A stretch of 64,000 nt of DNA from Negaprion brevirostris (Eukaryota): contig JARDVH010000084.1 in the NCBI GenBank assembly GCA_030324005.1, forward strand, positions 91,434,129-91,498,128, in the 5' to 3' direction. The notes beneath the pieces were generated by a model. That model searched no databases, was not told where the DNA came from, and worked only from the letters and a program-made list of their open reading frames with translations. Shown one piece after another: positions 782 through 63,406 of the stretch. Positions within the stretch are counted from its first letter, which is position 1; every line of letters begins with the position of its first letter. A program made the position numbers and the translations under genes.

Positions 782-808
782 TTTTCTGGCTTGCTTGAAG
801 TTCGAATG
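782..808 (-). CDS. 27-nt microexon of coiled-coil gene, (A)FELQASQK
   Basis: cttcttgttacag|CATTCGAACTTCAAGCAAGCCAGAAAA|gtaagt; phase 1 open; Leu at position 4 like other 27-nt exons. Confidence 0.6.
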
Positions 809-1228
809 CTGTAACAAGAAGTGCAATTCTATGAACGATATGCACTAAAATCAATTTCGCATCAAATCTGACGTTGCATTAATAGGGTGAAAATTAAAAC
901 ACAGATACTCAAAACATCGTTACCTCAGCCATGTGTCGTTTCTACATTGAGTGAACGAGATTAGAAAATTGGATGCGTGGCTCAATGGATGGTGTGCGGA
1001 AAAGGATGTGTCACACACTGCACGTAAGCATCTCATTCTCAGGAAAGCAGGCACCTTTCTGTTGAGGTCAGCGCCGCGAAAAGTCGTAGGAATTAAGCCG
1101 CATATCTCGAAGGACGGGAGGGACAGAGTGAAGTGAGATTCAGAAATCCAACGCGAAGAGTCGGGCACTAGAATATTGTGGCGATCTCTATAAGACCACA
1201 GGAACGCGCCAAGAATGGAATTAAAAAC

Positions 1229-1423
1229 AAAGAACAAAGAAAATTACAGCATAGGAACAGCACTTCGGCCCTCCAAACCTGCACCCACCATGCTGCCCTG
1301 CTTAACTAAACCCTTCCGCACTTCCGGGCACCACATCCCTCTATTCTCATCCAATTCATATATTTGTCAAGACGCCTCTCGCAAGTCACCACCGTATCCG
1401 CTTCCACTATCTCCCCCGGCACC
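1229..1423 (-). mobile_element. CR1 LINE 3' end
   Basis: agaacaaagaaaattacagcataggaacag...ttcggccc is the reverse complement of a CR1-type 3' tail; runs into gap. Confidence 0.65.
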
Positions 1424-1913
1424 NNNNNNNNNNNNNNNNNNNNNNNNNNNNNNNNNNNNNNNNNNNNNNNNNNNNNNNNNNNNNNNNNNNNNNNNNNNNN
1501 NNNNNNNNNNNNNNNNNNNNNNNTAGACAGAAGATCATGACTCTCTGCACCATTGAAGTCCATGCCAGAGACGTAGTTTTGAAACTCATCACACTAAAGG
1601 TTTGATCATGTTCATAATGTGTTACTGCATTGAGAAATCTGCGTGCACTTAACACGTTTATGCTTATGAACGGCCCAAAAAAAACACGTTGAAAACGATC
1701 TACCCCTGTGCATTACAATTATATTCTATAAAGTGTCGCATATCAGACTCGTGAGTAAATTAAGTAGAGCTCATGAAACCAAAGAGGTCAGAGGCAACAG
1801 TGATTCAATGCTGATTGGTTGGTAGTCCCAGGGAGTCGCAGTGAATCTTTGTTTGGACATGTTCGAAATGGAGATTTTTTTATATAGTTCTAGAAACTGT
1901 ACTCTTCCAGGGA

Positions 1914-2228
1914 TGGCATGATGTACAATGACCAGAATTGCTGCCTCACAACTTCAAGGACCTGCCTCAATTCCGGGCTTGGGTACCAATCTGTGTGCAG
2001 TTTGCGCACTCTCTGCATGTCTGCACCGGTTTCCTCCCAAATTCCAAAGAATTGCCGGTTGAGTGGGTTGTTCGTGCTAAATTGGTCGTTCGTGTCCCAA
2101 GATATGTAGGTTGGAAGGGATTAGAAGGATAGTGCGGGGGAGAGGGCCTAGGTAAGATATTCTTCCAAACTCGATGGGCCGAATGGTCTGTTATGCACTG
2201 TATTGATACTATGATTCGATGATTATAT
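1914..2228 (+). mobile_element. V-SINE (HE1-like) with CR1-type tail
   Basis: tRNA-like head, V-domain (tgtgtgcagtttgc...ggtttcctccc), tail ctcgatgggccgaatgg. Confidence 0.7.
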
Positions 2229-2299
2229 GATTAATAAGATGTAAACAGCGTCAGTTCCAAANNNNNNNNNNGCAGAGAATGTAAGTTTTAAGTATCGTG

Positions 2300-3200
2300 A
2301 AATAAGTGAAGATGGTGCGGGAAGACACAATTAAATGGAGATTTTGGCGGAGTGAGCGGAGAAGTAAAAGGTTACATTTAATGACAAGAAGTGCGAAGTG
2401 ATTCATTTTGGTAGGAACTTCAGAAATACGCTCTTCAATTCCAATGTTAGTGCAGGGGCAATGCAATCTCTGTTGCTCACACCATTCATGACGGCAGGGC
2501 AAGGTGAGGGAGCGGGTAATAAAGCCTTAAGCGTTAATGGCTTTAAAATACCGGCGCAGAAAACAAAAGAATGAAAGATAGGTTTATTATGTATCGTATT
2601 GTATTGGGTATTGGGTTGGCCTTAACCGGAATATTCATCCAATTATGGAAACAGTTTAAAAATGGCATGATGTCGTTACAGAGAGAGAGAGAGCAAATAC
2701 AGTTCACCAGAATGGTTATAGGGACACGTCTCTTTTATTAGATTCATAGGTTTCAAAGTAGGATTACTGTCCTTGGCAAATGAATGACTGAGAGAACACT
2801 TCAGAGGAGGATTCAACATCATTGTGCATTTTGACAAAATCGGTAGGGAACTCTTTCCATTGTTGGAGAGGCGGGGATAGGGAGGAGTGTGGTCAGTTGG
2901 CAGAAAGAACCATAGTTCACTGATTTAAGTTAATGAATCAATGATGACATGTAAGAAAGATAAATAGATAGGTGGTGTTTGCATCTGCAATCTACTGCTG
3001 GAGATTGTAATGAAGGCAACTTTATTAGATAAAGAGAAAAGCGAATTGGGTCAGGATCTGAAAGAAAAATAACGTCGTGTAAGTTTAGGCAGGATGCCGC
3101 AGGGAGTTGGGGTGGTGCTTTGTTGGATTGCTTTCTCCGTGAGCTAGCACGAATCGGACTCTCCCAACTGCCTCACCCTGTTTTAAAAATACTTTGATTC
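2300..3200 (+). mobile_element. Highly degraded CR1 ORF2 3' portion
   Basis: aagtgcgaagtgattcattttggtagg (KCEVIHFGR) and gttcaccagaatg motifs; many stops. Confidence 0.55.
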
Positions 3201-3842
3201 TGTGCCGAAAATCTTAGGCCTGGCATTCAATATTAATTGAACAGAAATTGTTGAAATTTTTGAAGTGACATCAGGTTTATTCCTTTAACTGGAAAACTCC
3301 TCTTAGACGTTTCCAATATCCAGATGAATTTAAATTTGGCTCAGTTGAGATCAATATATGTTCCTTGCATTACCATATCAGTCAGTACAGACCAAAGGTG
3401 GATAATTAGAATTGTGGAGGATAAAAGTTGTTGGATTCTACGGTTAAACAGCATATAACACCCCAGTAATCGATTCCTGCTCCAATCTCCCTTTCGATAT
3501 TTCATTGTTCCTTGCAGTTTTTTGACGAAAATTCGTGTGTTCCATTCCAGGCAATTTCTGAGTCCGCTTTCTGGTGACCAATGTCACCAGAAAGTCAGAT
3601 TTGCACGAGGCCTCCGAGGCTGATTGACTCTTTGGCCAGTTGAAAATCGTTTACATATTTCGCATGCAATTACAGTAGTATGCATAATACACAGTTATTC
3701 CTGGGTAAGATGCTCTTTCTGTGAGTTGGTGCAGACGCCGTGGACCGAATTGCGGCCTTCTGCACTGTCGGGCACCTATGACTATATGACTCTACAATGT
3801 GATGCTATTGAACTTCTGAAACGGGTGTACTCAGCGGAACTC

Positions 3843-3917
3843 TCAGCTATTTACCATTTATATAGATGATCTGGAGGAGGGAACCGAGTGTATGGTGTCG
3901 AAATTTGCTGATGACAC
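3843..3917 (+). mobile_element. CR1 reverse transcriptase fragment
   Basis: Translates QLFTIYIDDLEEGTECMVSKFADDT (FADD RT motif); ends at 100-N gap. Confidence 0.85.
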
Positions 3918-4034
3918 NNNNNNNNNNNNNNNNNNNNNNNNNNNNNNNNNNNNNNNNNNNNNNNNNNNNNNNNNNNNNNNNNNNNNNNNNNNNNNNNNNN
4001 NNNNNNNNNNNNNNNNNCCCCTGTAATATCTCAC

Positions 4035-4240
4035 CTCGTCTTTGATCCAGATATTGGTGCTCCTGTCTCAACAAGCCAGACGCTGCCATTGGCTGTCACA
4101 TTGGGATGGTGCAGGAGGTGGCAGTTGTTGGTGCTCAGTGGCAGGGTTCCCATCCGCTGGGGACTGGGTGGGTAGAGAATGCCCCCCACAGACACCCAGA
4201 GAGAAATGGCAATTCCAGCCACCACGCCTGAAAACGCACC
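4035..4240 (-). CDS. SLC5A5: Single internal exon of a sodium:solute symporter, most like sodium/iodide symporter
   Basis: ttctctctttgccag|GGT...ACGAG|gtgaga; GAFSGVVAGIAISLWVSVGGILYPPSPQRMGTLPLSTNNC matches the SLC5A5/6/8 'SLWV..G..LYPP...LP.S...C' segment; 206 nt, phase 0 to 2. Paralog assignment is from memory. Confidence 0.7.
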
Positions 4241-4581
4241 CTGGCAAAGAGAGAACACGGATCAGGAATCCCAATGAACACCCAGTTAAAGAACCCCGAG
4301 AAACGTTCAAACAACAGGAGAATGGTAGCTTCAGTCAGTGAACCAAAAGGTTGATGGGTTATTTTAAAGGAACACAACACAGAGGGCACAATTCCCCAAC
4401 ACTTCCCACCAATGGCATCTTCCAGCCCCAACGCAGTCAATAGCAATTTACATTCCTTGTCGTAATTACTGTCAGGGAACCTGCACTACAGCAAGAAGTC
4501 AACTTCGTTCAAGATCGGAAGGTAGGTCCTGCTGGGGGGCAGAGGTTGGCAAATTCCACCCATAGAATTTACAGAAACAGG

Positions 4582-4884
4582 TGTGATGGTACTGTGCCTT
4601 TAAGAAATGTATTTTAATCATGTTTCTCTGCAGAATCTTTTATTGGCACCGTGTTGTCTGCAGCCGGTGTCTTTTATTGTTACTGAAGCAGTATAATTAA
4701 CACTGTGTTGATTTTAATCTGGGCTAACGCGGTGTTCTGTGGCTTTAATACTCCTTTGGAAATTGCAAGATTACAGTGAGGATAATGGGTTGTATATTGT
4801 GAGAATTCAATTAATATATTAGGTTGTTTAGGGCTTTAGTGAATATATTTAAATGTGAGGTCTTTAAAATTTCAATGAGGATAT
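4582..4884 (+). mobile_element. LTR-like fragment
   Basis: Begins tgtgatggtactgtgcctttaag, resembling fish/shark Gypsy-type LTR starts; truncated by CR1. Confidence 0.4.
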
Positions 4885-5237
4885 TTGAGTGGAACTTATA
4901 AAATGTTGAGAGGAATAGATAGGGTGGATTCTCGAAGATTATTTCCCAGGGCTGAAATTGTCGCTACAGGAGGACACAGGTTTAAGGTGCTGGGGAGCAA
5001 GTACAGAGGAGATGTTAGGGGTAAGTTTTTCACTCAGAGGGTGGTAAGTGAGTGGAATCGGCTGCCGTCGGTGGTGGTAGAGGCGAACTCGCAGGCGTAT
5101 TTTAAAAGACTTCTGGATGAGTATATGGGAGCTAATGGGATTGGACGTTACAGATAGTTCTGTGGCTTGGCAAGTATAGATGTGATCGGCGCAACTTGTG
5201 GGCCGAAGGGCCTGTTTGTGCTGTAGTGTTCTATGTT
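4885..5237 (+). mobile_element. CR1 ORF2 C-terminus and 3' tail
   Basis: YKMLRGIDRVD...GHRFKV...FFTQRVVSEWNRLP...FKRLLD; tail gggccgaagggcctgttt...ttctatgtt. Confidence 0.9.
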
Positions 5238-5318
5238 ATTAAGTGGACAAAAGCAGTGTAAGGGCAGATGGACATTAAGGGAAACAAAAAACATAAGTGA
5301 TCTTATTCACTTTTTTAC

Positions 5319-5345
5319 CTCTCTCCTTTTCGTTCAATAGTTTTT
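5319..5345 (-). CDS. 27-nt microexon EKLLNEKER
   Basis: tattttgtttggcag|AAAAACTATTGAACGAAAAGGAGAGAG|gtaaaa; homologous to 22849-22875 and 18818-18844. Confidence 0.8.
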
Positions 5346-6039
5346 CTGCCAAACAAAATAGACAAAAGCAATCATCATAGAGTCGGAATGCAGTAGATGG
5401 CTTCGTGAGCAACTGATTGCTACAAAAAGTGAGGATAACTCTATGAAACTGTTTCAAAATTCAAGAGTTGTGTGCCTACGTTCATATTTAAATTAACGTA
5501 CATTTGATATCCAGGGACATTTTTAACTGCAGAATATGTTATGGTTCTTAGTTGTATAATGCACATGGAGTTTTCATCTCGGAGTTTTACACTGGCAATG
5601 AACTTCCTATAATTTCATGCTTAGTATACGCATGATAGTTTGTCTAGCACAAACAAAATCATATAAAAAGTGTGGTCAAATGTAAAGTGTAATAGCAGAT
5701 TAAATCCTTTGACACAGCTAAAAACAGTTTGAAATCATGGGATCGTTTTTCAAATTCTAATCACATGCTGCGAAATTGGAAAGTTCATATAACCAGCATT
5801 CACCACAAAACACAAGGCCTTATTCCCAAGTGACAAGTAGGAAGACGAATGGTGGCTTCATGCTAATTCCCGGAAGTCCTGATGATTGTTTTGAAAACAT
5901 TCACCTATTTGAGATTCTCACTGCGCCGTTATGTGCACAACATAATTCGATTTTGATCAACACATGTTCATTGTCATGGAGTGAAGTAATTTGCTGTGTA
6001 ATAGTGACATTAAATAGGTTATACTCAATTTAGCCATAC

Positions 6040-6066
6040 CCAGTTTTTGAAGTTTGCTCTGTAGAT
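6040..6066 (-). CDS. 27-nt microexon DLQSKLQKL
   Basis: T-rich tract ...acttttag|ATCTACAGAGCAAACTTCAAAAACTGG|gtatgg; phase 1 open. Confidence 0.8.
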
Positions 6067-6903
6067 CTAAAAGTAAAAAAAAAATTGGATTGCACGTTCA
6101 TTATAAGAGCTATAAGAAGTACAATGAAGAGTCCAGATGATTGATCCACCAGTAGGAAAATGATATGAACGATAAAACAGTAATAATCACTTCAATAAAA
6201 CGCAAAATGTATGTTAATTGAAAGGAATGTCTTTGAAGATCGCAGCTATATGAAAGACGGTCCTATATATTTTATGGACTCCCTGTGAAATCACATGCAC
6301 CAGAATGCTATTTACAGGTTACAACGTTCCTACATTTCAACTAAGTATTTTCAGTACTAACTTTGCAGTGTTTCTTTTCATGAAACCACGTCAGAAAAAT
6401 TTAGTTTCTATACACTTTAATCGAGTTAAAATTTCTGTCAATGGTGTTTTGTGTGCAGTAACAATGAATTCCCAAAACCGAGCATTTTCATTGTGCATTT
6501 TTTACCTTCATACCTGCACTGAACAAATTTTGTTCAACAGACGATAGGGAAAATCATCATCATACTTATTCACACGGCAAATTCTACGTGCTTATTCGTT
6601 TGTTCCGATAATAGCGAACTTTGCCCTTAGTTCATAACGTTACTCTTTCTTATCTTAGATGAGTGTAATATGTGAATGGCATCCTTTCAACACACACATA
6701 AAAACACACACACATACCACAGAAATAAAGTTTCTGGTCAATGGAATAGATTTTTCATGTATTGCAAAAGGAATAACATTGTATTGCACATTTTTCAATA
6801 TTTAGCGTTCTCAATGGAACATAAGAACGTAAGAATTAGGAGCAGGAGTATGCCATTTGGCCCCTCGAGCGTGCACAGTATGTGTCAAGGAAATTCAAGT
6901 AGA

Positions 6904-11640: not shown

Positions 11641-11664
11641 CTTTCACTTGTTTCATCTTCTCCA
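11641..11664 (-). CDS. 24-nt microexon VEKMKQVK
   Basis: ttttcaatttatcag|TGGAGAAGATGAAACAAGTGAAAG|gtaaaa; counterpart of 33681-33704. Confidence 0.75.
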
Positions 11665-12308: not shown

Positions 12309-12335
12309 CGAGTTGTTTTCGATATCTTTCGCTTT
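12309..12335 (-). CDS. 27-nt microexon ESERYRKQL
   Basis: T-run ...ttcag|AAAGCGAAAGATATCGAAAACAACTCG|gtaaag; ends CAACTCG like 34798-34824. Confidence 0.8.
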
Positions 12336-16306: not shown

Positions 16307-16342
16307 CACTGTTAGCTGATTCTCTCTTGACTCTTACTTTTT
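16307..16342 (-). CDS. 36-nt microexon EKVRVKRESANS
   Basis: ttgttatttattttag|AAAAAGTAAGAGTCAAGAGAGAATCAGCTAACAGTG|gtaagg; only phase 1 is open; ends ACAGTG like 23575-23610. Confidence 0.75.
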
Positions 16343-17656
16343 CTAAAATAAATAACAAATATTCGTTCATCTATTGTATCTGACAACATGAATTACTGTT
16401 GACCTCCACTAAATTTTCTCTGATATCTTGCACTGCATTGTTCAAGCACGGCATAAACAATCGTTAACACTGTTTCTTAACGATTTCAAGACCTCTTCCA
16501 ACTTGAATTATACTTGGCATACAGTCGGCCGTGATGATTTTTAACTTTCGCGTTTTGAAATTGAAATGGAATTATTATTTTTTATTTATTGAGGAGTGGA
16601 TTCACTTTCGATGTTAGCATGCTCAAAATTGACAAGTTGAAATATTAACACTTTCTCATTATGTCCCGCCAATAAATTAGGCACAACTTCCGAAATTCAA
16701 ACTAGCAACTGCATCTTCTGCGCCATCTCGAAAGTGAGCCGCGACTTCTGCAGTAGCACGTTCCTTTCATGTGCTGTAAGCAGAGGTACTTTTAACTTTT
16801 GCTTGTAGTGTTAAGCTACTGTCATCAGATTTCCCTGTCGTGAAACACAATTTCTAGTTTCCTTGCCCATTGGCTTTAGCTGTTCCTTGCTTTTTCGCAC
16901 ATTAGAGACCTCAGGAAAATAAAGGTGGATGGGGTGTAACAAGAGAGTGTATATACAGATATAATAAAACAATGGTAGCCACTGAAGTTTCTTTCACGTT
17001 CTATCTATGTTAGCTTGTCCGAGTGTCCATGCAATAATTGAAATAATAAAATGCATCGCTAAATATTCAGAATGTCCCATTCGTTTACAAGGGAAAGCTA
17101 GCTACCAGGATCGGATATGTATACACTTGGAGCACCTGCTTGCATGACGAGCTTGGTAGTCCAGCAGGTTAAATCAATGCGTGGAAAATAACACCTGCAG
17201 GCTAAATCAATGTGTGGAAAATAACGCAGTTGATGATTTATATTCTGGCAGCGTCTGAGTGAAATCTGGTCAGAAGGAACAGGAAACCACATGCCGCTGA
17301 TGTTGTCAATTCTCAGATTTGTCAAAACGTTTAAAATCGAAATCATGACTGCAATATTTTCCTTCTTTTTAAATAGAACATTCGCGCCGTTTATACTTTC
17401 AGAGGGGCCACGTCTTCTACCAGGCCTCCCGATTAACTCCCACAGTGAGGCTTAATCACACACCGTTTGTAAAATCATGGAAAAGGAGCAGAAAAATCAT
17501 TGCACGTGGATAGCTCATTAAAAAAAAACACGTATCAGAGTTGATCAAGTGGGATCTATTCTGCTCTGCAACACTATGATTCTGTTCGATTTGTGAACGT
17601 GTTACCGCTCATCTGCAAACACCACTGATTTTACTTCCACATCATTTTTCTGTTAC

Positions 17657-17689
17657 CTTCAGTTGTGGATCGCTTTAATCTGTTCAAAT
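17657..17689 (-). CDS. 33-nt microexon DLNRLKRSTTE
   Basis: attttccttcacag|ATTTGAACAGATTAAAGCGATCCACAACTGAAG|gtaaca; KRS at the same position as in the 23575 exon. Confidence 0.75.
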
Positions 17690-18817: not shown

Positions 18818-18844
18818 CAGCTTCTTTCTCATTAAGTTTCATTT
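18818..18844 (-). CDS. 27-nt microexon EMKLNEKEA
   Basis: catttccattaacag|AAATGAAACTTAATGAGAAAGAAGCTG|gtaaat. Confidence 0.82.
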
Positions 18845-19050: not shown

Positions 19051-19080
19051 CTGCAAGTGAGAGGTTTCGTTCGGAAATAC
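19051..19080 (-). CDS. Partial (probably 36-nt) microexon ...ISERNLSLA, 5' end in gap
   Basis: Donor GCAG|gtatcg; aligns with VTKRSLVDS; the far side of the gap ends ttttgagcttgta (acceptor-like). Confidence 0.55.
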
Positions 19081-19799
19081 NNNNNNNNNNNNNNNNNNNN
19101 NNNNNNNNNNNNNNNNNNNNNNNNNNNNNNNNNNNNNNNTACAAGCTCAAAATGATCACTATTTGTTTTCTGTTGCAGCACACGCAGTTTCTTGGTAGAA
19201 TACTCAGTGCCGGTACCAAAGTAAGCATTACGGACTAATTATAAACAATTTTGCTCAGGCATAATGCCCCAGTTCCATTGTAATTATTAAATGATTACAT
19301 AACGTATTGAACTAATTTGAGGTGTTTGGAAAAAAAACATAAATATATGTTTCTTTTTCTTCTCAGGAAAGGGTCATCGCTACGCGTCCAGCTACCGATA
19401 GCCCATGGTTAGGTCTTCATTCTGTATCACCTGCAAATTTTCTTCATAACATATTGATGGAAGAGAGCGAATCCTGAGTCCAATGGTAGGAAATCCAATC
19501 AGCCAATACTTGCAAAAAGAACACGATCGAAGTTCCTGATTGATTTTTGCTGATGCCTACTGAAGAGAATAGTTAATACTCCATCACACTGTTTCAGTCA
19601 ACATTATTATGAGGTTTTCAGTTGCCTCGAGAATAGACAGTCAAAATATACGGATCTGAAAAAATACAATGCCGTTTCCCTTCTTGAAGGGGCAGCAATA
19701 AATCAGCTAGGGCTTCAAAATAATCTCGAAACATTTAAATGTATTCTCAGGCACTAGTCGATTATTACAACTTTTGTGTAAAGTAATATATTTTCTCAT

Positions 19800-20696: not shown

Positions 20697-21149
20697 CTGT
20701 CCCGTCAGACTAACTCATGATACTATACCTGAGCACCAGTGCATCTCGTCCGAACAGTGAATAAATCCTATCCACGAAAGATGATTAAATATTCTCAGCG
20801 TTCTTTCCAGCTGAAACTTTACCAGGTAAGAATTTCATATTTCCAAGTCCCAAATATTCTCTTGAAATATGGCTTTGCCACATTGCCATGTACCATGATG
20901 CCTTGCAGTAAACTGCCTTTGGCCAAAGCGAATCAATAATAAAACATTCAAAGTATCAGCACGTGTTTTGCAAACATAATCACTCATTTAAATTAATCAC
21001 GGCATTGCATATGAGTACATTGCTCTTGTTAATTATTTTTAAAGTAATTTAGTTTAATGCTGCCAGTGCCTTAACCTTTACTGAATTAAAAATCATACCA
21101 CTCATTCGAAGTTCGACTTGCAGGAATGAAGAGCGTCAATTGTTGCAAA

Positions 21150-21430: not shown

Positions 21431-21436
21431 AGACTA

Positions 21437-22848: not shown

Positions 22849-22875
22849 CGTTTTCTTTGTCTTTCAGAAGTTTTT
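22849..22875 (-). CDS. 27-nt microexon EKLLKDKEN
   Basis: tcttttcctcaacag|AAAAACTTCTGAAAGACAAAGAAAACG|gtaaac. Confidence 0.82.
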
Positions 22876-28294: not shown

Positions 28295-28321
28295 CCTTCG
28301 CTTTTTCTCTGAGTTGTATTT
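28295..28321 (-). CDS. 27-nt microexon EIQLREKAK
   Basis: ttttaattactgatcgcag|AAATACAACTCAGAGAAAAAGCGAAGG|gtaaga; ExxLxEK class. Confidence 0.78.
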
Positions 28322-29139: not shown

Positions 29140-29645
29140 CGTAGACTCGGAAATAATTCCCTATGGCCCTAGACATTCCCACAAGGGGAAACACATCTCA
29201 GCCTCTGCCCAGTCAAGCATACAGAGAATCCAAAATGCTTCAACATGGTCGCCTCTCATTCTTCTGAACTACTGCGAGTAGAGGCACAACCACACCAACC
29301 TCTTCTCATAAGAAAATCCATCCATTCCCGAGATCAACCTGGTGAACCTTCTCTGGACTGTTTCCAATGCATCTTTCCTAAGATAAGGGGTCGCTCATTT
29401 GAAAGAAAGTTCAGGGGGATGTTTGATTTTTAGAGTTTCCTGAGCCTTTGTAACTTTCTTCCTCAAAAGACAGTGGAAGCAGAGTTCGTGAATATTTTTG
29501 AGACAGAGCTAGACAGATTATTGATTGACATGAGGGGGGGGGGGGGTAAACTGTTATCGGGAGTTAGCAGGATTAGCAAAGATTTACCCGAGTGGCAGAG
29601 GAGGCTGGAGTATCCAAGTGGCCTACCCTTGTTCTTAATTCATGT
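29140..29645. mobile_element. CR1 3' fragment with inverted 5' part
   Basis: ~29140-29390 reads CR1 on minus; ~29378-29645 continues the element on plus to the tail. Confidence 0.6.
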
Positions 29646-30346: not shown

Positions 30347-30373
30347 CCAAATTCTCTATTGTTCTCTTTTGTT
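30347..30373 (-). CDS. 27-nt microexon EQKRTIENL
   Basis: tatctctttctttag|AACAAAAGAGAACAATAGAGAATTTGG|gtagga; counterpart of 6040-6066. Confidence 0.78.
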
Positions 30374-33680: not shown

Positions 33681-33704
33681 CTTTATTTTCTTTGAACGTT
33701 GTCA
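33681..33704 (-). CDS. 24-nt microexon VTTFKENK
   Basis: ttctgctccattag|TGACAACGTTCAAAGAAAATAAAG|gtaatt. Confidence 0.72.
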
Positions 33705-34797: not shown

Positions 34798-34824
34798 CGA
34801 GTTGCAGGCGAAGTACATCAGCTC
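34798..34824 (-). CDS. 27-nt microexon GADVLRLQL
   Basis: tctgttctatttcag|GAGCTGATGTACTTCGCCTGCAACTCG|gttaag. Confidence 0.72.
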
Positions 34825-35297: not shown

Positions 35298-35315
35298 CAT
35301 ACGAAGATTGCTTCA
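35298..35315 (-). CDS. 18-nt microexon (V/L)KQSSY
   Basis: ctcctttttggttttcag|TGAAGCAATCTTCGTATG|gtaaga; strong sites. Confidence 0.6.
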
Positions 35316-37099
35316 CTGAAAACCAAAAAGGAGAAAATTCGATCAATAAAGTCGTGCCCTAACAAAATTCAGCACCAAGGGCTACCTTTCAAAATACTTC
35401 CTGCAAGTCGATGAAAGTATCGCAATTCGCCGTCCCACAATGAAACAGTAGGTCGAGCTTTGAAAAAAAATTGTTACGAGCGGTAGAAGTTATTTTTCCC
35501 CTTGCAACGACCCTTTTGACGAACGTCGATTGATTCCGAGTGCGAATCAGGTTTCCAGCAAGGTGCTTGCATAAGAGGTGTACCAATCGAATTTTCATGA
35601 TTTGCATTCCGAAGGCACCGAATTCATGTTGCTCGAAATAATGTTTCACCCCAATTATCGCAATCGTCCCTTCTGAGGACTATTTTGAGGATTCGTATCA
35701 CACTAATTTGGGAAACACTGTGAGATCCGCTCATTTCTAAGCATTTAACGTCAAGCGTTTATCCTGAAGAGTAAGGAACGATCGACCAGGCATATTAATG
35801 TTGAAGACCTGCCTTACGTTGTTTCTCCGATTCTAATTTTTTGATCAGATTATATTTACTAAGCATAATTTGCACTTTAAATATATGATTATTATGAGTA
35901 TTTTAAACTGTAACCACGTTAGGTATTTGATGAATGTTATATAGTTGAGCAGCGAATTACTGGGGTGGTCTTCGGAGCATGTGATAGACCAAAGACCGTT
36001 CTCACAGGACTCCCCTCACTCGTCTGGCAAACCTTTGATATATATATGAAACAATTTCGAAATCCCCTACGCTGTGAGTCGCTTTGTTCCCCATTCAAGC
36101 AATTGTTAAATAAAGAATTAAAAGTTATTACAGAATTTCCGTTCCTCATTTCATGCGCTGATGAAGGTTCAGCTGGATTCGAACATTAGCTCTATTCGTT
36201 GTCCACAGCTGTTGTCGTACCTGATGCCAGCATCCGCAGTATTTTTCTTCGACCTTTGGAATTTTCATTACCTTGCTTGTTGCAGAACTGATTTTTTACG
36301 GAAGAGGCCTCCTGACGCATCTTTTCGTCTTGGAATCACCAGAATAGTTACCGGATTGCCAAATTTCGATGGCACAACAATTCTGCATGAAAAATTATGT
36401 TTCATAACTTGGCACTGCTTGATCAAAGCGTTACCTGGGGGAAAGCATCAGGGAGATGTGTACCTATTAATGCGTCTGGATCAAAATGGGCTCAAGTCCT
36501 GCTGAGATCAGTTCCCTGCATAGGATGACATTTAGTTTCTAGCATTTATAAATGTGACTCAGAACAAGCTCAATTGTGTATCGTGAATTGAACATTAGTG
36601 CAATTTTTAGCACAGTCGTGATCGTTGATTAAGCAGTGCCAAAACGGCGATTCATAGTCAATATATGGTTTGATTTTGCAAGTGCTGCCTTGTTGATTAT
36701 GGTCAGTTTTCAGCCTATTGCGAACAACCAAAGGGAGATGCTGTTTGAGATTATCGATCTGTGGTTGGGCCAAGTAAGCCAACTGCCTGGCATCGCGCCA
36801 GCACTGAGGTTCACATACCACATTATTACATTTTCATACACCAATCTATTTGAAAATGTATTTTATGTCTCAACAGCACATTTGCAATTGTTTTCCATCA
36901 TCTCATCCTGGCGTTGAACTTAAATGTGCTTCGCCTAGAAAGGAAAGGTAGTTAACGCCGTGGCATAGTTCAAGAGTTTGCCTAGTAAACAGAAGATTCT
37001 AAGTTCAAATCTCAGCGGTGCGTCGGTAAATTTGGCCGATGTATGAACTTTAAGTCACGACCACCTAAAAAGAGTTGGCAAAAATGTAATCTTAAGACA

Positions 37100-44990: not shown

Positions 44991-45549
44991 TTACTGTGTT
45001 CCTGTAATTCTGGAATATGAAGTAGACAAGGTTCCTTTTCTTCTGTTAATGCAGTCTCTGTTTCAAACTCGTTTGAAATAATGCACACAACTCTGTGAAA
45101 GACGCATTAGAATTCAGTCATTTGACATAGAAGAAGTGCAAGTTCTCCAGAGTCTTTTCATGAATCGAAAAGTTAGACAAAGAGGACTGACTGCATTAAG
45201 TACTTCTGCAGGATAATAAACTTAAATTAACTTACAATATTCTTGGAATATTAAATTTCACTAAGGTTTTTAGGATAATTATTAAAAGTTGATCGGCTAT
45301 ATGGAGAGGCGTTTTGCTGTTGCTGACGAAATCTAATGCGAAAGACATAAGTTTCTGAGTCAGATTTCCCTCCATACAATTATTGGACGAGTTTAGAAAT
45401 TAAGGCACCAGTTTCTTTCTGTGCTCAGGCGTCTATCTAAATGACATTGGTGACAACTTTGCTGGTATATATTATTTGATATTACGTTTCTAAGGAAAAT
45501 TACTTTCTCGTAAGTTACACATTGAAGATCTTTTGATGGCGTTTCTCAC

Positions 45550-45585
45550 CGCTCAGCTGTTGAAGTTTCTCGCATTTTTCGAGCT
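45550..45585 (-). CDS. 36-nt microexon ELEKCEKLQQLS
   Basis: ctttttaactttcag|AGCTCGAAAAATGCGAGAAACTTCAACAGCTGAGCG|gtgaga. Confidence 0.82.
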
Positions 45586-45956: not shown

Positions 45957-45983
45957 CATGACTTGCATCTTGCAGTTGTGTCT
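45957..45983 (-). CDS. 27-nt microexon ETQLQDASH
   Basis: cattattatttcatag|AGACACAACTGCAAGATGCAAGTCATG|gtaaaa. Confidence 0.8.
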
Positions 45984-46830: not shown

Positions 46831-47169
46831 ATAGAATAAAACAGGACACTGGCTTGCTTAATGGCTAGAGCGTCCCGTTTGAAAATAGGAAGGTCTCTTT
46901 CCAATGTTACCTCTTTTCTTCGCAAAATTTTAATATGATGACAATTAGAGATGTGTGGAGCAAGCGAGCGAGCGAGAGATATATGGACCAGCCTGGAGTG
47001 CATTCGCATAATCCAATCTTGAGTTAACTAAATTATAATTGAAGTTTCAGCACCAGGTAAACTAAGAAAGTAACAAAGCTGGGTCATATTATGAAAGTGG
47101 ACCGAATGTATACGTTATATATGACGAAACATCATTGGTGAAGCAAGTTATTTAATTGCCCATTCTTAA

Positions 47170-48790
47170 GTGCTCATGAGAATATACTTCTCATGCGCTC
47201 ATGAGAATATACTTCTCATGGGCACTTAGGTCTACATTCTTAAATTGCAGAAACATATGTGGCGTAAGGTCAACCACAATACTGTTAGGGTGAGCGTGGT
47301 TTGAATCCACGACACTAAGAAACGGAACTATAGTTCCAAATGAGGACGGTGTGTGTGTTGGAACACGTCGCTGGCTTTTCCAAATATCTTCTAACCTGGC
47401 TATTCTCCGTGGCAGAATTTGCTGGTTTGTAAAGTGCTCACGGATGAGACTTAGTGAGTTGCTGCAGTACATCTTGTNNNNNNNNNNNNNNNNNNNNNNN
47501 NNNNNNNNNNNNNNNNNNNNNNNNNNNNNNNNNNNNNNNNNNNNNNNNNNNNNNNNNNNNNNNNNNNNNNNNNNNNNNNNNNNNNNNNNNNNNNNNNNNN
47601 NNNNNNNNNNNNNNNNNNNNNNNNNNNNNNNNNNNNNNNNNNNNNNNNNNNNNNNNNNNNNNNNNNNNNNNNNNNNNNNNNNNNNNNNNNNNNNNNNNNN
47701 NNNNNNNNNNNNNNNNNNNNNNNNNNNNNNNNNNNNNNNNNNNNNNNNNNNNNNNNNNNNNNNNNNNNNNNNNNNNNNNNNNNNNNNNNNNNNNNNNNNN
47801 NNNNNNNNNNNNNNNNNNNNNNNNNNNNNNNNNNNNNNNNNNNNNNNNNNNNNNNNNNNNNNNNNNNNNNNNNNNNNNNNNNNNNNNNNNNNNNNNNNNN
47901 NNNNNNNNNNNNNNNNNNNNNNNNNNNGGCGGTGGTGGAGGGAATGAATATAGAAGCTGTTAAATGGGTTAATAGCGAGGCAGGTTGCCTTGTTCCGGAT
48001 GGCATCGAGCTTACTGCGTGTGTTGAAACTGCACTCATCCGAGAAAATACAGAGTTCTCTATCACAGTCCATGCTTGTACCTTGGAGATGGATGACAGTC
48101 TTTAGGATGTCAGAAAATGAGTTAGTCTCCACAGAATGCTCAGCATTTGATCTGCTCTTGTAGTCACAGCATTTAGGTTGCTGGTCCAGTTCAGTTTCTG
48201 GTCAATGATAATGTCTGGATATTAAGCAATGTTCATGGCATTGAACGTGCAAGGGAGAAGGGTGGGTTTTTTAATGGAATGGCCATTGGCTCGCATTACT
48301 GTGGCGTATATGTTATATGCCAGTTATCAGCTGAAGACTGAACGTTGTCCTTGTCTTGCTGTGTTTGGAAAAGGTCTCCTTCAGAATGAATGGAGTCGTC
48401 ATTGCACAATAATCAGAATTCCTCGCGACTTCATTCATTCCGAAGCAACCCTTTTTCAAACACAGCAAGACAAGGACAACGAAAAATCTTCATCTGCGTC
48501 ATCAATGACTCTCCCTCCATCATAGGAAAACGATAGGCTAATACCCCTATCGTTTTCCGATGATTGGCTAATTGGCTAATACCCCTATCGTTTTCCGATG
48601 ATGGAGGGAGAGTCATTGATGACGCAGATGAAGATTTTTCGCTCAGGAAAATACCCTGAAGAATCGCAATCATGCTTCGCGATTGAACTAATTTACAGCT
48701 AATGGCAACAGCTACCCTGCTCTGTGGTGGGGATATGACTCCAATCACTGGTTTGTTTCTCCCATTAATTCCCATTGATTCCTTTTTGTA
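47170..48790 (-). mobile_element. LINE (L2/CR1 group) RT and 3' portion
   Basis: Minus strand KIFICVINDSPSII RT segment; same family as 59635-60600 (+). Confidence 0.6.
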
Positions 48791-52555: not shown

Positions 52556-52775
52556 CTTGGTTGTTTGCTCAGCTTTGAAGTTGTGAAAGTGTACTTTGAA
52601 TAAATATTGCAGGAAATCCATTACGACATATTTCATTTGACAATATTGCGCTCATTTAACGTTTCCACGTTTTTTTTTCTTCGCACTCAGCTTGTAGAGA
52701 TATTATTCTTATCGGAATGACAGTCCAATAAAATACACATATATGTATGATAGAACCATTATCTGTATATTTCAC

Positions 52776-52811
52776 CTAAAGTTTGTACGGTTTGTTTCAG
52801 TTTATTCATTT
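52776..52811 (-). CDS. 36-nt microexon EMNKLKQTVQTL
   Basis: tttcttctttaatctttcag|AAATGAATAAACTGAAACAAACCGTACAAACTTTAG|gtgaaa. Confidence 0.82.
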
Positions 52812-56692: not shown

Positions 56693-57414
56693 NNNNNNNN
56701 NNNNNNNNNNNNNNNNNNNNNNNNNNNNNNNNNNNNNNNNNNNNNNNNNNNNNNNNNNNNNNNNNNNNNNNNNNNNNNNNNNNNNNNNNNNNNNNNNNNN
56801 NNNNNNNNNNNNNNNNNNNNNNNNNNNNNNNNNNNNNNNNNNNNNNNNNNNNNNNNNNNNNNNNNNNNNNNNNNNNNNATTTTATCAGTCCTGATTCACT
56901 TTAGGAAGTATTGTGGCCTTGAAGAGTGTAGTAAAAATGCAAACCTTCCCTTTTCCGATTCCTAAGGTACAATATTTGAAACTTTGTTGCATTGTTTACA
57001 GCCTCAACTTTGTGTTGGACTGCAGCTGACCTACAGTAACGGGGCACAACTTCACATGAATTGCAAAATCTTACTGAGAGTTTTTTGTCTCTTCCAATGG
57101 GTTCAATCCTTCATTATTTCCATTGAAACGGCATAGTTTTTGTGAGTTACGAATTGCAACTTGAAAATGGCATCTTATTTGCATTGATTTACATATTTGG
57201 ATGATAAAGGAAACCAATAGCCTTCCTGGCAAATGCATTGAAAATACTGTCGATTTTTTATACAAACCCTTCCGCAAACAGTTTGGACGGCAAATAACCA
57301 ACTCATATAAATTCCGCTGCCATATAAATTATAAATTGCAGATATATTTACCCTTGGCGTAACACAAAGGCACGAGATTTTAACAATTAATTGTGGTATT
57401 CTACTAATATATAC

Positions 57415-57441
57415 CTGCAGTTTTGTTCGAAAGTCGATTTT
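57415..57441 (-). CDS. 27-nt microexon ENRLSNKTA
   Basis: ttttgcattttgttttag|AAAATCGACTTTCGAACAAAACTGCAG|gtatat. Confidence 0.8.
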
Positions 57442-57874
57442 CTAAAACAAAATGCAAAATAACAAAATCTTAAATATGATAATCATTCTTGTTGTCATAA
57501 GAATTCGGCATCACTGGCAGGATCAACATTGATTGAAAATCTCCAATTGGCTCCTGATAGGTCAAATCATTTGCTTGTACAGTTGCAATTGATGGCGCGT
57601 GCTGAGACTCACTGTTCCTTTATTGAAGGGGCGGGGGAAAGGGCGGGAGTTTCATCCCAGTGACGTGTCCAATTGACTGTACATTTCACGGCACATGAAT
57701 AGAACGAAATGCAACACGTAAAGACAATGTTTACTTATTATCGCTTATTTTGATGACTGCGCAATTGAAATGGATCATTTGTCAATAGTAAACTGTTGCT
57801 TTACAGAAGGCAAGTTCAGCAAAGAACGTCAAGCTTTAGAGGTATATAAATTAACGTTTGATGATTTTGCTCAC

Positions 57875-57910
57875 CTTTATCTTGCTGATTGAGAAGTGCA
57901 GCGTTCAATT
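57875..57910 (-). CDS. 36-nt microexon ELNAALLNQQDK
   Basis: tttttgttttgataatag|AATTGAACGCTGCACTTCTCAATCAGCAAGATAAAG|gtgagc. Confidence 0.82.
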
Positions 57911-58362
57911 CTATTATCAAAACAAAAAGAAGAGATTTAAGACTGAAAAAAAAATCAGTTAATGATGTCTTATAGCAAAGCGTCCAGAAACACATAAACA
58001 ATACTTTAGGTACATGTCGGGTCTAATAGGGGAAGGTAAAACAGCACAAAATTAATTTGATTTGACAAGAATATTATATTATTTATGAATTTAATGCTAT
58101 TGCATTTTTAGAAGAAAGTCAAAACATTTGTTAAATGTCGAAACATCGTATTGAGTTTAAACAATTGATATGAACGATCTGGATTTTATTTGGTGCACAG
58201 GTTTCTGGAAAATGAATTAATCAAGATAAAAATATATGCAGCAATCTGCACGGAATAATAACATTTCTACGCAATCACTTGCATAATCAGTAATTTTGCA
58301 TGATATTAATAAATTAAATGGCAAGCAAATGCATTCATCATTAATCAAAATCAATGAAGTAC

Positions 58363-58389
58363 CATTGTCTTTGGCAAGCAGTTGCTGTT
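58363..58389 (-). CDS. 27-nt microexon (E/K)QQLLAKDN
   Basis: gttctttttcag|AACAGCAACTGCTTGCCAAAGACAATG|gtactt. Confidence 0.75.
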
Positions 58390-58606
58390 CTGAAAAAGAA
58401 CTTCAGAGATCAGTACACATGTTAACCATAACAGCATGCAGTAAAATTTGCTATCAGTTTACAACACTTTTCATGACAGTGGCAACCCTAAAATCGATGG
58501 TGAAGGCGTCAGTGATGGCAATCCCAAGAGAACATTGTTAGTTTCTTTTTTCCTGGAGATCGCCATTTCTGGCTGTTGCGTGGTATGAGTGATACTTGAA
58601 ACTAAC

Positions 58607-58672
58607 CAGAGCAAATTAAACTTTTCCTGAGTATTTTTGCCTTCTTCAGTATTTGAACATTTAAGACTGATA
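58607..58672 (-). CDS. Candidate 66-nt exon xSVLNVQILKKAKILRKSLICS
   Basis: cactttttcag|...CTG|gttagt; open in phase 1 and phase 2; atypical size. Confidence 0.35.
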
Positions 58673-59365
58673 CTGAAAAAGTGCTATTATCACTGTATCC
58701 TACTTATTAAATTTGGTATTGAAAAGTGTTATCATCAGTGAACATCCTACTTTTGAAATTATGTAAATGTTTGGTTATATTACATTGCTCTCCAAACCTC
58801 TGACAGTGATATCCTAATGCTGAAATTATTGAGTCCGAAGGATCGCAACCAATTATCTTTGTGATGAGTATTAGTTTAAGCAATGACAATTTTCTCCAGC
58901 GTTTCACTCTTACTTCCTACTGCTACATCAGGTAGAATGCAGTCTTGATTCCGTTGAATGACTCATCTCTGGAATTCAGTTGTTGTATGTGTTCGGATGT
59001 AATGCACTCTGGAAATGGATGGCCCTGATTCAACCTAAGTTTAGTGGTTGTGATCAATTTTTTGTTGAAGAAGTGAAGATACAACACAGATTTATTTGCT
59101 GTTACGTGGTGAAAGCAGCGTACATAAAAGAGCTAACCGATCCCACAACCAACGGTTCAGATCTCATTTTTGCAGTCCTGCTACACCCAGTTGCGAATGG
59201 TCATGGACAATTACACAACTAACTGAAGCAGTAGGGACCACAAATATCTCGATCGTCAACCAAGGTGAACTGGTCACATCAGTGCAAAAGACAAGGCTGA
59301 ATAACGGGCAACGATCTTCAGCCAGTCCTGCCAGATGCATGGTCAATCACTGACTGAACTCTCCA

Positions 59366-59405
59366 TTCACCTGACGAAGAGGGAGTCCCCTCGAAAGCTA
59401 GTGAG
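59366..59405 (+). ncRNA. Minimal type I hammerhead ribozyme in Penelope-like terminus
   Basis: ttcac CTGACGA a gaggg-agtc-ccctc GAAA gc TA gtgag: intact core, stems I and II, palindromic AGCU mini-helix III. Confidence 0.75.
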
Positions 59406-59634
59406 TTTACTATCAAATAAATCGGTTGGACTNNNNNNNNNNNNNNNNNNNNNNNNNNNNNNNNNNNNNNNNNNNNNNNNNNNNNNNNNNNNNNNNNNNN
59501 NNNNNNNNNNNNNNNNNNNNNNNNNNNNNNNNNNNNNNNNNNNNNNNNNNNNNNNNNNNNNNNNNNNNNNNNNNNNNNNNNNNNNNNNNNNNNNNNNNNN
59601 NNNNNNNNNNNNNNNNNNNNNNNNNNNNNNNNNN

Positions 59635-60600
59635 CATGACAACTAAGCAGTCACCTATTTGCCGAAGCTCCCACAGCTCCTGACTTCAATACATCCTTGT
59701 TAAAGCATGCACTCAAGAGGTGAGGTGACATCAAAGCTACATTTGACAGATTGTATGACCAAGGAACCCTAACAGAACTGAAGTTCACTGCAATCATGAG
59801 AAAAGTTTTCCACTACTTTGAGTCATACCTAGAAAAGTCGTAGCTGGTTGTTAGTGTTGGCGGTCATCCTCACAGTCCCAGGACTGCAGTTCATGTGATC
59901 CACAGGACAATGTTCGAGCTCTGCCCATCTTTAGTAGCTTCCTCAATCATTTTTTCTCCATTATTAAGTCAGGATTGCAGATGGTTGCTGATGTTTGAGG
60001 AATGCTCAGCACTATTGCTACCTGTACAGCTGTCCAGCTGTAAAGCAATCGTATCCATGTGCAGCAAGGACCGAAAAACGTTCAAACTCGGGCTGCATGG
60101 CTAGTAAAATGCATGTCACATAAACTGCAGGCAATGGCCATACCCACGCCTCGGAAATTAAACAATCCCGTCTTCATATTCAATTGCATTATGATCACCG
60201 GCTTGGTTGGCACTCGATTAGCAACCTCCAACACTCACTTCCTCCACCGCAGAGGCACAGCGGCAGTAGTACATGTCATCTATGTGATACGTTCCAGCAA
60301 TTTAGTAAGGCTGACTCGATAGCACCTGCCAACTTACGAACTCGACCACCTAGAAGGGCAAACATAGAAAATGAGTGGAACATGACCACGTGCAATTTTC
60401 CTACCCAGTGCATAACATTGGTCCTTGGAAGCATATTGCTCTTCCTTGAGCACCGCTGGGCAGCATCACAGAAACTCCTTCCTAACAGCACTGTGGGTAC
60501 ACCTACACCACATGTTTCAAGAGGGCGGCTCTCCTCCACCTTTTTAAGTGCCATTATGGATGCAAAATAAATTTGGCCGCTGCACTCAAGTGACACTTCC
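59635..60600 (+). mobile_element. LINE (L2/CR1 group) RT and 3' portion
   Basis: gacatcaaagctacatttgacaga (DIKATFDR); internally deleted; tail aaataaatttggcc. Confidence 0.65.
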
Positions 60601-60818
60601 AAATAGTCAACTAATCCCCTTTCAGCAGTATTGCCTGTTCACCGCTCCATGCGGTGCCTTGATCCAATTATACCCAGGTCCTTATCTATGCTTCAGATGA
60701 ACTCCAAGTTTCTGATTGCAGGTGTGCATCATCACAAGTGAATAACAGATATATACATTCAAGTGAAGTATCAGTTATCTAACGTACATTTTGACTTGGA
60801 TGCTGCTTCGATACTAAC

Positions 60819-60845
60819 TTGTGACTTCACGAAGTTTTTGAAGTT
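60819..60845 (-). CDS. 27-nt microexon ELQKLREVT
   Basis: ttatcttcttcatcag|AACTTCAAAAACTTCGTGAAGTCACAA|gttagt. Confidence 0.72.
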
Positions 60846-60987
60846 CTGATGAAGAAGATAATTTCAATTAGGTTGCATGATCCATTCTCTGAATGTAGAG
60901 ATAAAGAGCAACAAGCATATTGCCCAATATTAAAATATAGCACATGAACAACAATTCCACCGATTGGAAAGAGATTAAAGACATTAC

Positions 60988-61014
60988 CTGCCCTCAGTTG
61001 GATCAACCTCTCAT
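60988..61014 (-). CDS. 27-nt microexon DERLIQLRA
   Basis: cattccattttgcag|ATGAGAGGTTGATCCAACTGAGGGCAG|gtaatg. Confidence 0.8.
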
Positions 61015-62794
61015 CTGCAAAATGGAATGTTTTATTGGAATGTAATTGCTGATTTAGATAAATATTCAGAAATAAAGGAAAACAGTAACCCAACAATGTT
61101 CGCTTTTCAGTTCAATCATTCGAATCAACTCATGTTCCGTAGCATTGAAGGCCATACAACTGAAAGCAAATTATGCTCAAGTACTTTGAGTCATTTTGTG
61201 TCTACTATTTTTTCGAACAGTCAGTCCCTGAGCTCCACCAACCTCCAGGTGAAGAAACGCTTCTCTTCCGCTAGCAACTTGTGTGTCTTTACCATGAATC
61301 GACTTCCCTTGCTATGCATCCCTCAAGAAAAAACGAATGAATAGGCTTTATGAGGCATTCTATCCAGATAATTCATGATTGTACGTGTTTAGTTAGACTT
61401 GTTCTTCATCTATAGTGTTACAAAACCATATTCCGATCCCGTGCAAGCTTTCCTTATCCTTAAAACATATCAGTAAAGCAAAAACCCTCGTAATATCATT
61501 TCTATTCCTTCTAATGCAATCAAATCTTTCTTATCTTGACGTTCCAAAATTGCATCCAGCTGTTGAATTATTGCCAAGCCAATATTTTATGTTGTTTCAC
61601 CATAGCTTAGAAGCTCTGACATTCGTTCTAAGACTCATGTACTGAACGCAGGTTGCCTCGTAACTTCTACGTTTTCCAGGTATCAGAAATGTGTATATAA
61701 CCAGCATGCTACCTTTTTGATTTAATCTTCCTATTATCATATCATTTACCGTGGATTCAGTTGCTTGTCAATCTTCTTCAAATGTATTGCTTCAGATTTC
61801 TTTGATATGAATTGTCTTTATCACCGTCCACCCACGTGTCTTGTTCAATGATATCGTCCCTCAACTTACAGAACTTTGCTTCATAATCAAACACGCCTTC
61901 AATTTGCACGTTATTTGAAGTCGTCTTGATCATACTATCTGAGGGACGTTGGGCTACCGCCAGGTGAGGAACATGTTATCTTTTTTCTCGAACAAAACCC
62001 ATGATTTGCATGCTAGATGATATTTTCACTGGACCATTAATCTAGTGGCCAAGGCTATTACTCAACTTCCACCACGGCAACTTTCTGTTAATAATTTGGA
62101 ATTAAATGTGAGTCTCAGCAATGGTGACCATTAACTTGTTGCCAATTGTCATAATTACGTTCACAAACATCCTATCGGGAAGCAAATCAGATCTGTCGGC
62201 AAAATACGTAAAATAAAAATGAGTAATGCTCTGATCCAAGGCAAGTGCGTCTCATTCTTCAAGAACTAACAGTGTGAGTATTTGGACAGGGTAACAAGTA
62301 CGAACACAAAGAAGTTNNNNNNNNNNNNNNNNNNNNNNNNNNNNNNNNNNNNNNNNNNNNNNNNNNAATTGTTTTTTCTTTGTTGAGATCATTAAAAGTT
62401 GACATCCATTTCAGAATGTCGACAAGCCTCTCTAACAACGGAAATGAAGTGCAATCAAATATATACGTGATTGCATTGAAAATCTTAAAAGGTGAAATCA
62501 TGGCGCCCAGGATGAGAAAGGAGGAAAACACAAATTCAACAATGTTGTGTGTTCAAAACTTATTTTTAAAAGATCTGCTGCAAGTGATTACCGTGCTATG
62601 TGAAGCAAAACATAAATTTGGAGGAATCGGTTGGAAAAAATGACAGGACAGCATTATCTTAACAGAAAGGTTCCTAGAAAAAGGGCTAAACTTGGATGCA
62701 ATTACGTTCACGTTATACTTAGAAAATGTAGAAGGTTTGAAGAGAGACACAAGCATTAATATAGTTCTCAGGGTTCCATATATGCATATTACCG

Positions 62795-63110
62795 GGGGCG
62801 GCACGGTGGCACAGTGGTTAACACTGCTGCCTCACAACACCAGGGACTCCGTGTTCGGTTCCTGGCTTCGGTCATTCTCTGTGTGGAGTTTGCACATTCT
62901 CCCCGTGTTTGCGTGGGTTTCCTCCGGGTGCTCCGGTTTCCTCCCACAGTCCAAAATGTGCGGGTCAGGTGTATTGACAATGCTAACGTGCCAGAGGCAC
63001 TAGCTAGGGTAAGTGCATGGGGTTACAGGGATAGGGGCGGGGTGAGAATGTGGTCGATGCAGACTCGATGGTCCGAATGGCCTCCTTCTGCACTGTAAGA
63101 CTCTATGATT
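62795..63110 (+). mobile_element. Relatively young full-length V-SINE (HE1-like)
   Basis: gggcggcacggtggcacagtggttaacactgctgcctcac; near-consensus V-domain; CR1-type tail. Confidence 0.9.
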
Positions 63111-63205
63111 TAAGGCAAAGGCTAATAGACGGGCCACTTCAGTTTTTCGGCGAAGTTTGCTTGTTAGTTATGTAATACGTTATTAACATATTCCGCAGGA
63201 CTTAC

Positions 63206-63232
63206 CATCGGTTTTGTATTTCGTGTCCTGGT
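63206..63232 (-). CDS. 27-nt microexon DQDTKYKTD
   Basis: ttattgctctcactcag|ACCAGGACACGAAATACAAAACCGATG|gtaagt. Confidence 0.75.
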
Positions 63233-63379
63233 CTGAGTGAGAGCAATAATAAAAAATCATCTTAGCCACAATATAAAGCGTAGAATCAAGGTTCAGTATT
63301 GCTTTTGTCACTTCATTCATCCTTTAACAATACAGGAGGAAAGAACGATTTATTACTTGGAGAAAAAAAATCTTTTTAC

Positions 63380-63406
63380 CTTTCTTGGCGTCAGTGAGCT
63401 TTTTTT
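63380..63406 (-). CDS. 27-nt microexon EKKLTDAKK
   Basis: gatgtttctcaacag|AAAAAAAGCTCACTGACGCCAAGAAAG|gtaaaa. Confidence 0.78.

Follow-up and report, generated by a model that had tools for sequence, protein, structure and literature searches.

Enterophilins are soluble mammalian proteins in which regular heptad repeats lead into a C-terminal B30.2 domain, and they are much shorter than the protein described here. One of them, enterophilin-1, is reported to bind sorting nexin 1 and to reduce the amount of EGFR at the cell surface (PMC13749957). Chicken BG genes contain 13–36 exons of 21 or 24 nucleotides (nt) together with an IgV and a transmembrane exon and, in the portions of the papers drawn on here, no B30.2 domain (PMC8813856, PMC12841164, PMC4046983, PMC5938342); zipper protein is described in such portions as a soluble tail that acts on actin-myosin (PMC4046983, PMC5938342, PMC8813856). 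Here we describe a shark gene predicted to join a long microexon-encoded coiled coil to a B30.2/SPRY domain. The window, meaning the whole 64-kb stretch of DNA analysed (G000:C84:91434129-91498128, from contig C84 of the 2.69-Gb genome of Negaprion brevirostris), contains 28 minus-strand, phase-1, exon-like segments between positions 782 and 63406. With high confidence in both the gene and its architecture, we place these segments in the middle of one gene of ~390 kb with at least 100 microexons.

The 28 segments add up to 807 nt; 16 are 27 nt long, six are 36 nt and two are 24 nt, with one each of 15, 18, 33 and 45 nt. A first-pass annotation of this stretch had reported about 28 minus-strand microexons of 18–36 nt, of which the number and the predominance of 27 and 36 nt stand, while the true size range is 15–45 nt; the five peptides it quoted are all present among the segments. 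An AG acceptor and a GT donor flank 27/28 segments, the acceptor of 19051-19086 falling in a run of N. In a generic splice-site scan of the window, 27-nt segments numbered 16 on the minus strand versus 3 on the plus strand. The comparison of strands and shuffled sequence that the annotation had proposed showed an excess on the minus strand: when open segments of 27 or 36 nt were scored by means of a generic splice-site matrix, those reaching at least 11 bits numbered 19 on the minus and 3 on the plus strand, with a mean of 2.2 and a maximum of 8 in 100 dinucleotide shuffles, and at 13 bits or more there were 15 and 1, with a shuffle mean of 1.0 and a maximum of 5. Colinear chaining of a protein of the catshark S. 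torazame on minus-strand candidates recovered 22 exons (score 577), 13 of them exactly abutting; the plus-strand control gave 6 exons, a score of 45 and no abutting exons, and the reversed protein gave 11 exons and a score of 82. Two chained candidates, 29348-29377 and 21099-21116, were discarded as overlapping, weak matches, and the long open reading frames of the window proved to be N-run artefacts or repeat fragments.

The array runs on past both ends of the window. Positions outside it are given relative to the window; the gene lies on the minus strand, so positive values are upstream (5′) and negative values downstream. The start exon, encoding Met-Ala-Ala, lies at +150171 to +150302 (G000:C84:91584299-91584430), 86 kb upstream. 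The array ends downstream at -233 kb, and 5 kb beyond lies an intact SPRY exon at -238529 to -238009 (C84:91195599-91196119; Pfam E = 4.2e-9), 238 kb from the window. The positions of these two exons give a gene span of ~389 kb, so that the earlier proposal of a hidden gene longer than 60 kb was, if anything, modest. The SPRY exon shares 62% identity with the final part of S. canicula XP_038671249.1, a model of 945 amino acids that RefSeq names 'zinc-binding protein A33-like' and that follows the microexons colinearly, starting at window exon 782-808 and reaching the SPRY exon. S. torazame XP_072329363.1 (730 amino acids) starts in the Met-Ala-Ala exon and takes in the window exons. These two catshark models overlap by more than 100 residues with 89% identity, from which we infer one continuous transcript, and in the catshark proteins neighbouring exons join with neither gap nor overlap at 41/55 and 51/66 pairs. 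RefSeq models of the two catsharks and of an electric ray (Narcine) match exon by exon. Across the gene, 100 exons totalling 2,952 nt have an orthologue score of at least 20 or a paralogue match, including 55 of 27 nt, 28 of 36 nt, 10 of 24 nt and 2 of 21 nt. The two catshark models combined imply ~1,490 residues, so some 30–40 further exons would be weak, diverged or in gaps. Two other gene ends were considered and rejected: two 27-nt exons that encode a Cys, at -54 kb and -69 kb, are followed by no B30.2 exon, and a PRY match at -427 kb belongs to a separate gene with a RING and a B-box. That neighbour is an ordinary TRIM gene (RING, B-box, PRY-SPRY) on the minus strand at -407894 to -427433, 170 kb downstream.

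The SPRY domain of the last exon scores 37 bits in Pfam (cut-off 26.3). A family profile matches 97 PDB sequences, the best being BTN3A1 (E = 6.9e-33), followed by TRIM7, TRIM21 and the pyrin B30.2 domain. The predicted structure of the SPRY domain is of β-strand, with a mean predicted local distance difference test score (pLDDT) of 69 and a predicted template-modelling score (pTM) of 0.70; residues 1–38 are poorly modelled. Pfam finds no PRY match in the SPRY exon or in XP_038671249.1. Profile positions 2–165 align with the whole BTN3A1 B30.2 domain, and judging from this alignment a diverged PRY subdomain is likely present. Before the B30.2 domain, the hydrophobic residues show a period peak of 3.5 in 3/3 proteins, indicating a coiled coil. 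In the 36-nt exons, hydrophobic residues predominate at positions 2, 5 and 9 (86%, 96% and 75%), the 27-nt exons carry Leu near positions 4–5 and Lys at 7, and a 36+27 exon pair encodes 21 residues, or three heptads. With this period, an open frame and colinear catshark and ray orthologues, the idea of a minus-strand, phase-1 coiled-coil gene of an elasmobranch is supported.

Searches for further domains were negative. In XP_038671249.1, SPRY is the only Pfam domain above cut-off, and Pfam finds no RING there; the other family coil proteins examined (P0003-P0006, P0014-P0016) have no precomputed Pfam domain. With a shark TRIM as tblastn query, there were just two RING matches, one at -408 kb and a weak one at -317 kb, and each lies 3′ of the last exon. 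Neither Pfam nor tblastn found a B-box for the gene, a single pattern match at +539 kb being without tblastn support. No Ig match was found in 1.26 Mb (tblastn, E ≤ 1, two IgV-B30.2 queries), N gaps aside, and no transmembrane segment in 9/9 family proteins, where the highest 19-residue hydropathy is at most 1.35. The walk past the window ends that had been suggested thus reached a B30.2/SPRY last exon and no IgV, RING or transmembrane part. The RefSeq names golgin, myosin, CENP-E and trichohyalin were set aside, as no domain specific to those families is present, and the ESM Atlas matches are scattered generic coiled coils. A genome-wide V-set search was also made, in which 150 of 927 candidates were scored. 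Elsewhere on the contig, at C84:99.565-99.573 Mb on the plus strand, an IgV exon and a B30.2 exon lie 8 kb apart in a butyrophilin-like arrangement with no microexon array between them.

Set beside the described systems, the gene resembles chicken BG and zipper protein in having a long coiled coil in many tiny exons, a tandem cluster with copy-number change and variation in tail splicing, features documented for the chicken genes in excerpts of three papers (PMC4046983, PMC5938342, PMC8813856). Unlike BG, it has at least 100 exons, mostly of 27 or 36 nt, and carries B30.2, and the searches found neither an Ig nor a transmembrane part. As in the butyrophilins (BTN3A1, BTNL, ERMAP), a heptad region is followed by B30.2; however, the rod comprises ~1,300 residues rather than a few heptads, no IgV/IgC or transmembrane segment was found, and the B30.2 domain falls in a separate clade. 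The enterophilins share the soluble heptad rod and C-terminal B30.2 domain, a likeness of architecture only. TRIM-B30.2 proteins (TRIM39, TRIM58, A33/xnf7, TRIM21, pyrin) also combine a cytosolic coiled coil with B30.2, are the source of the RefSeq names and are neighbours on the chromosome, but the shark gene has no RING or B-box, encodes its coil in ~100 or more microexons and gives no Pfam PRY match. As neither a RING or B-box nor an Ig or transmembrane part was found, it is by architecture neither TRIM nor butyrophilin; it represents a new form of the scheme in which heptad exons precede B30.2. It parallels the chicken BG tail, with other exon sizes and with B30.2 attached, which bears on the diversification of B30.2 gene clusters.

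No description of the family was found in search listings and the opening lines of abstracts for Creative Commons-licensed PMC papers and bioRxiv preprints, shark genome-paper supplements aside, and RefSeq holds just automatically named fragments of it, in keeping with the earlier view that the protein is uncharacterised. Five family RefSeq accessions are absent from the available part of a shark skin-mucus proteome table, which uses UniProt identifiers; that table lists one 'A33-like' protein (A0A401NX33, 55 kDa, one peptide) whose membership of the family could not be told and which was not counted (PMC10707392).

A tandem duplicate of the gene, duplicate A, lies upstream on the minus strand at +523086 to +187300 (G000:C84:91.62-91.96 Mb). 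Its microexons are intact, the last third of the rod is missing and its B30.2 exon is frameshifted, with pieces in three frames; duplicate A may make a coil-only protein resembling a BG tail. It pairs with 65 exons of the gene, of which 62 were kept and 3 doubtful ones dropped. In the phase-1 frame these 62 paired exons are free of stops, whereas 39 and 27 of them carry one when read in the two alternative frames. The ratio of nonsynonymous to synonymous substitution rates (dN/dS) between the copies is 0.55 over all paired exons and 0.44 (bootstrap 0.26–0.66) over 22 window exons, which are under purifying selection. Over 16 window exons, identity to catshark is 74% for the window copy and 62% for duplicate A. 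Since a third minus-strand array, C, lies upstream of duplicate A (from at least +783 to +581 kb, its 5′ end beyond the region covered), the cluster exceeds 1 Mb. Within array C there are 27/36/30-nt repeats and seven successive 27-nt exons rich in Asp and Arg, and no B30.2 exon was found for it.

Six further, divergent family B30.2 exons are present in the genome, one at C84:93.46 Mb (C84:93.46-93.53) and five on contig C121 (6.2-10.95 Mb), and candidate 21–36-nt coil exons lie upstream of all six. Relatives occur in Cetorhinus, Hemiscyllium, Rhincodon, Narcine, S. canicula and the chimaera Callorhinchus, whose member is a short form, together with two further members. In an IQ-TREE quick run on 91 of 158 domains, picked by score to the family profile, 17 family rows form one clade (Shimodaira–Hasegawa-like approximate likelihood ratio test 100) apart from RING- and IgV-bearing proteins; the clade sits on a long branch and contains orthologous subclades common to several shark species. 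The two protein homologue searches scored ~8,000 candidates each, and an orthologue missing there weighs little. No bony-fish or tetrapod member occurs among the named matches, a minority of 150, and Latimeria, the sole named non-chondrichthyan, falls outside the clade; the sampled sequences suggest that the family is likely chondrichthyan-specific. Since almost every exon falls below 40 nt, this vertebrate gene family, common to sharks, ray and (in short form) chimaera, has been fragmented and mis-named by annotation.

On balance we favour a protein that would be a cytosolic, oligomeric coiled-coil rod of ~1,500 residues with a terminal B30.2 domain, probably serving as a non-catalytic tether or sensor. 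Phase-1 microexons of one continuous transcript would encode the rod and one divergent B30.2/SPRY domain. The rod would oligomerise, probably as a dimer, and so group the B30.2 domains at a single end of a spacer up to ~190 nm long (1,300 residues × 0.148 nm, if continuous). The B30.2 domain would bind a ligand in the cytoplasm, and the rod would make contact with partners in the cytoskeleton or in trafficking, as has been reported for chicken zipper protein and enterophilin-1. The gene itself may have grown by repeated duplication of 27- and 36-nt exons.

Several observations weigh against this picture. Many exon neighbours are 9+9, 12+12 or 8+9 residues long, so register breaks are built in and the rod is not one clean heptad. 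No database model spans the whole protein, the long models being split in two in all three species, and the evidence for the splice junctions comes from predicted (XP_) models in other species. A good acceptor precedes the Met-Ala-Ala exon and the frame is open ahead of the Met, which leaves room for one more coding exon on the 5′ side; at this point the S. torazame model carries 22 additional residues, and the S. canicula and Narcine models both start at Met-Ala-Ala. Identity between the gene and duplicate A (77% in exons, 64% in flanks) is biased upward, as exon pairs were selected at 58% identity or more and 3/65 were dropped as doubtful. Finally, dN/dS is 0.72 (0.42–1.21) over the 20 exons downstream of the window.

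The same gene might instead encode a TRIM-type innate-immune factor, in which B30.2 recognises a pathogen or host ligand and the rod forms a lattice or pairs with RING-bearing TRIMs that supply ubiquitin ligase. We regard this as unlikely. The surroundings are suggestive, for the gene sits in a B30.2-rich stretch of C84 (85–101 Mb) with a TRIM gene 170 kb downstream, the family undergoes birth and death in tandem copies, one with a broken B30.2 exon, and dN/dS values of 0.44–0.72 are relaxed. However, the gene itself provides neither RING nor B-box, the clade of its B30.2 domain stands on a long branch apart from TRIM/BTN with orthologous subclades across shark species, and the rod far exceeds a TRIM coiled coil (~110 residues in P0002).

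It is improbable that the locus comprises two or more genes as in RefSeq, a coil-only gene over the window and a coil-B30.2 gene downstream. Models are indeed split in S. canicula, S. torazame and Narcine, and coil-only family products may exist, since neither duplicate A nor array C shows an intact B30.2 exon. The split point, however, differs by species and the catshark models overlap by more than 100 residues, and the exons carry on unbroken and in phase from one side of the split to the other, with no terminal or first exon found inside it. A butyrophilin- or BG-like membrane protein, with signal, IgV and transmembrane exons farther 5′ or in gaps and the array as an extreme cytoplasmic heptad tail, is more improbable still: heptads followed by B30.2 are the layout of a butyrophilin tail in the excerpts consulted (PMC8813856, PMC4046983), the best PDB match is BTN3A1, the Met exon has an open phase-1 acceptor, and N gaps of 1–5 kb lie upstream, but no Ig match occurs in 1.26 Mb, none of 9 family proteins has a hydrophobic segment, the S. 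canicula and Narcine models start at Met-Ala-Ala, the Met exon lies just 37 kb from the end of the upstream duplicate, and the exons are mostly 27/36 rather than 21/24 nt.

Returning to the cytosolic rod, its length might vary by exon skipping, a suggestion of the first-pass annotation that finds partial support. RefSeq isoform models rest on RNA-seq introns. Of 15 predicted Narcine isoform models set against the longest one, 13 lack 8, 9, 12 or 18 residues in frame, and the remaining 2 depart from it at their ends. Five deletions map to window exons 63206, 60819, 45550, 22849 and 11641, and a sixth (57415) is assigned by position. Most skips in these models remove a single exon in frame; skips of 8, 9 or 12 residues nevertheless shift the heptad register, so the pattern fits leaky splicing as well as regulation. 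A strict rule that only 36+27 pairs are skipped was rejected, given that the Narcine models skip 8, 9, 12 or 18 residues. We can only speculate that this chondrichthyan cytosolic B30.2 family, with a rod of 9-/12-residue tiles (up to ~140 per gene, in a >1-Mb cluster), uses tissue-regulated skipping to set length, register and the reach, pairing or lattice spacing of its heads, as a splicing-programmed molecular ruler. At least 100 symmetric microexons in one gene offer a natural test of microexon recognition and of length tuning by skipping.

Within the window, 24 exons have an orthologue score of at least 20 or a paralogue DNA match; all exons listed here are on the minus strand. Among the 27-nt phase-1 exons, those matching both catshark and duplicate A are 63380..63406 (AG/GT; catshark 6/8), 63206..63232, 60988..61014 (8/8), 60819..60845 (7/8), 58363..58389 (6/8), 57415..57441 (8/8), 34798..34824 (7/8), 30347..30373 (6/8), 18818..18844 (5/8) and 782..808, where the overlap of the two catshark gene models starts. 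The ray counterparts of 63206..63232 and 60819..60845 are skipped in some isoform models, and the positional counterpart of 57415..57441 in one. Exons 6040..6066 (5/8) and 5319..5345 (6/8) match catshark; a further exon of the catshark model, 8 residues long, should lie between 5319 and 808 but was not located there. Duplicate A matches 28295..28321, which also has a ray match, 22849..22875, whose ray counterpart is skipped in one isoform model, and 12309..12335, which is not in the catshark model. The diverged exon 45957..45983 is supported as a positional homologue of a duplicate-A exon.

The 36-nt phase-1 exons 57875..57910 (catshark 9/11), 52776..52811 (7/11), 45550..45585 (6/11) and 16307..16342 (6/11) match catshark and duplicate A, and 23575..23610 matches duplicate A. 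In the sixth, 19051..19086, an N run covers the acceptor and the first 6 nt, so that its 5′ edge is inferred, and its visible 30 nt match duplicate A and catshark. The 24-nt phase-1 exons are 33681..33704 (catshark 5/7; duplicate A) and 11641..11664 (duplicate A; ray counterpart skipped in one isoform model), and a 33-nt phase-1 exon at 17657..17689 matches catshark (8/10) and duplicate A. An 18-nt phase-1 exon with strong splice sites at 35298..35315 aligns to an 18-nt duplicate-A exon and is supported through this positional homology. Two candidates are tentative: a 15-nt segment at 44995..45009, with a strong acceptor, a weak donor and a weak catshark match, and a linker-like 45-nt segment at 16790..16834, kept in duplicate A and not in the catshark model.

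Other features of the window lie outside this series. At 35410-35433, the site corresponding to a 24-nt duplicate-A candidate exon has lost acceptor and donor and looks like a decayed exon. A 206-nt minus-strand segment at 4035-4240, outside the array and not phase-1, has strong splice sites and encodes a hydrophobic peptide that we take to resemble a transporter; it is possibly a retrocopy fragment. The segment 9887-10282 is presumably a reverse-transcriptase fragment like that of a long interspersed nuclear element (LINE), and 47163-47220 holds two copies of a 25-bp tandem repeat.

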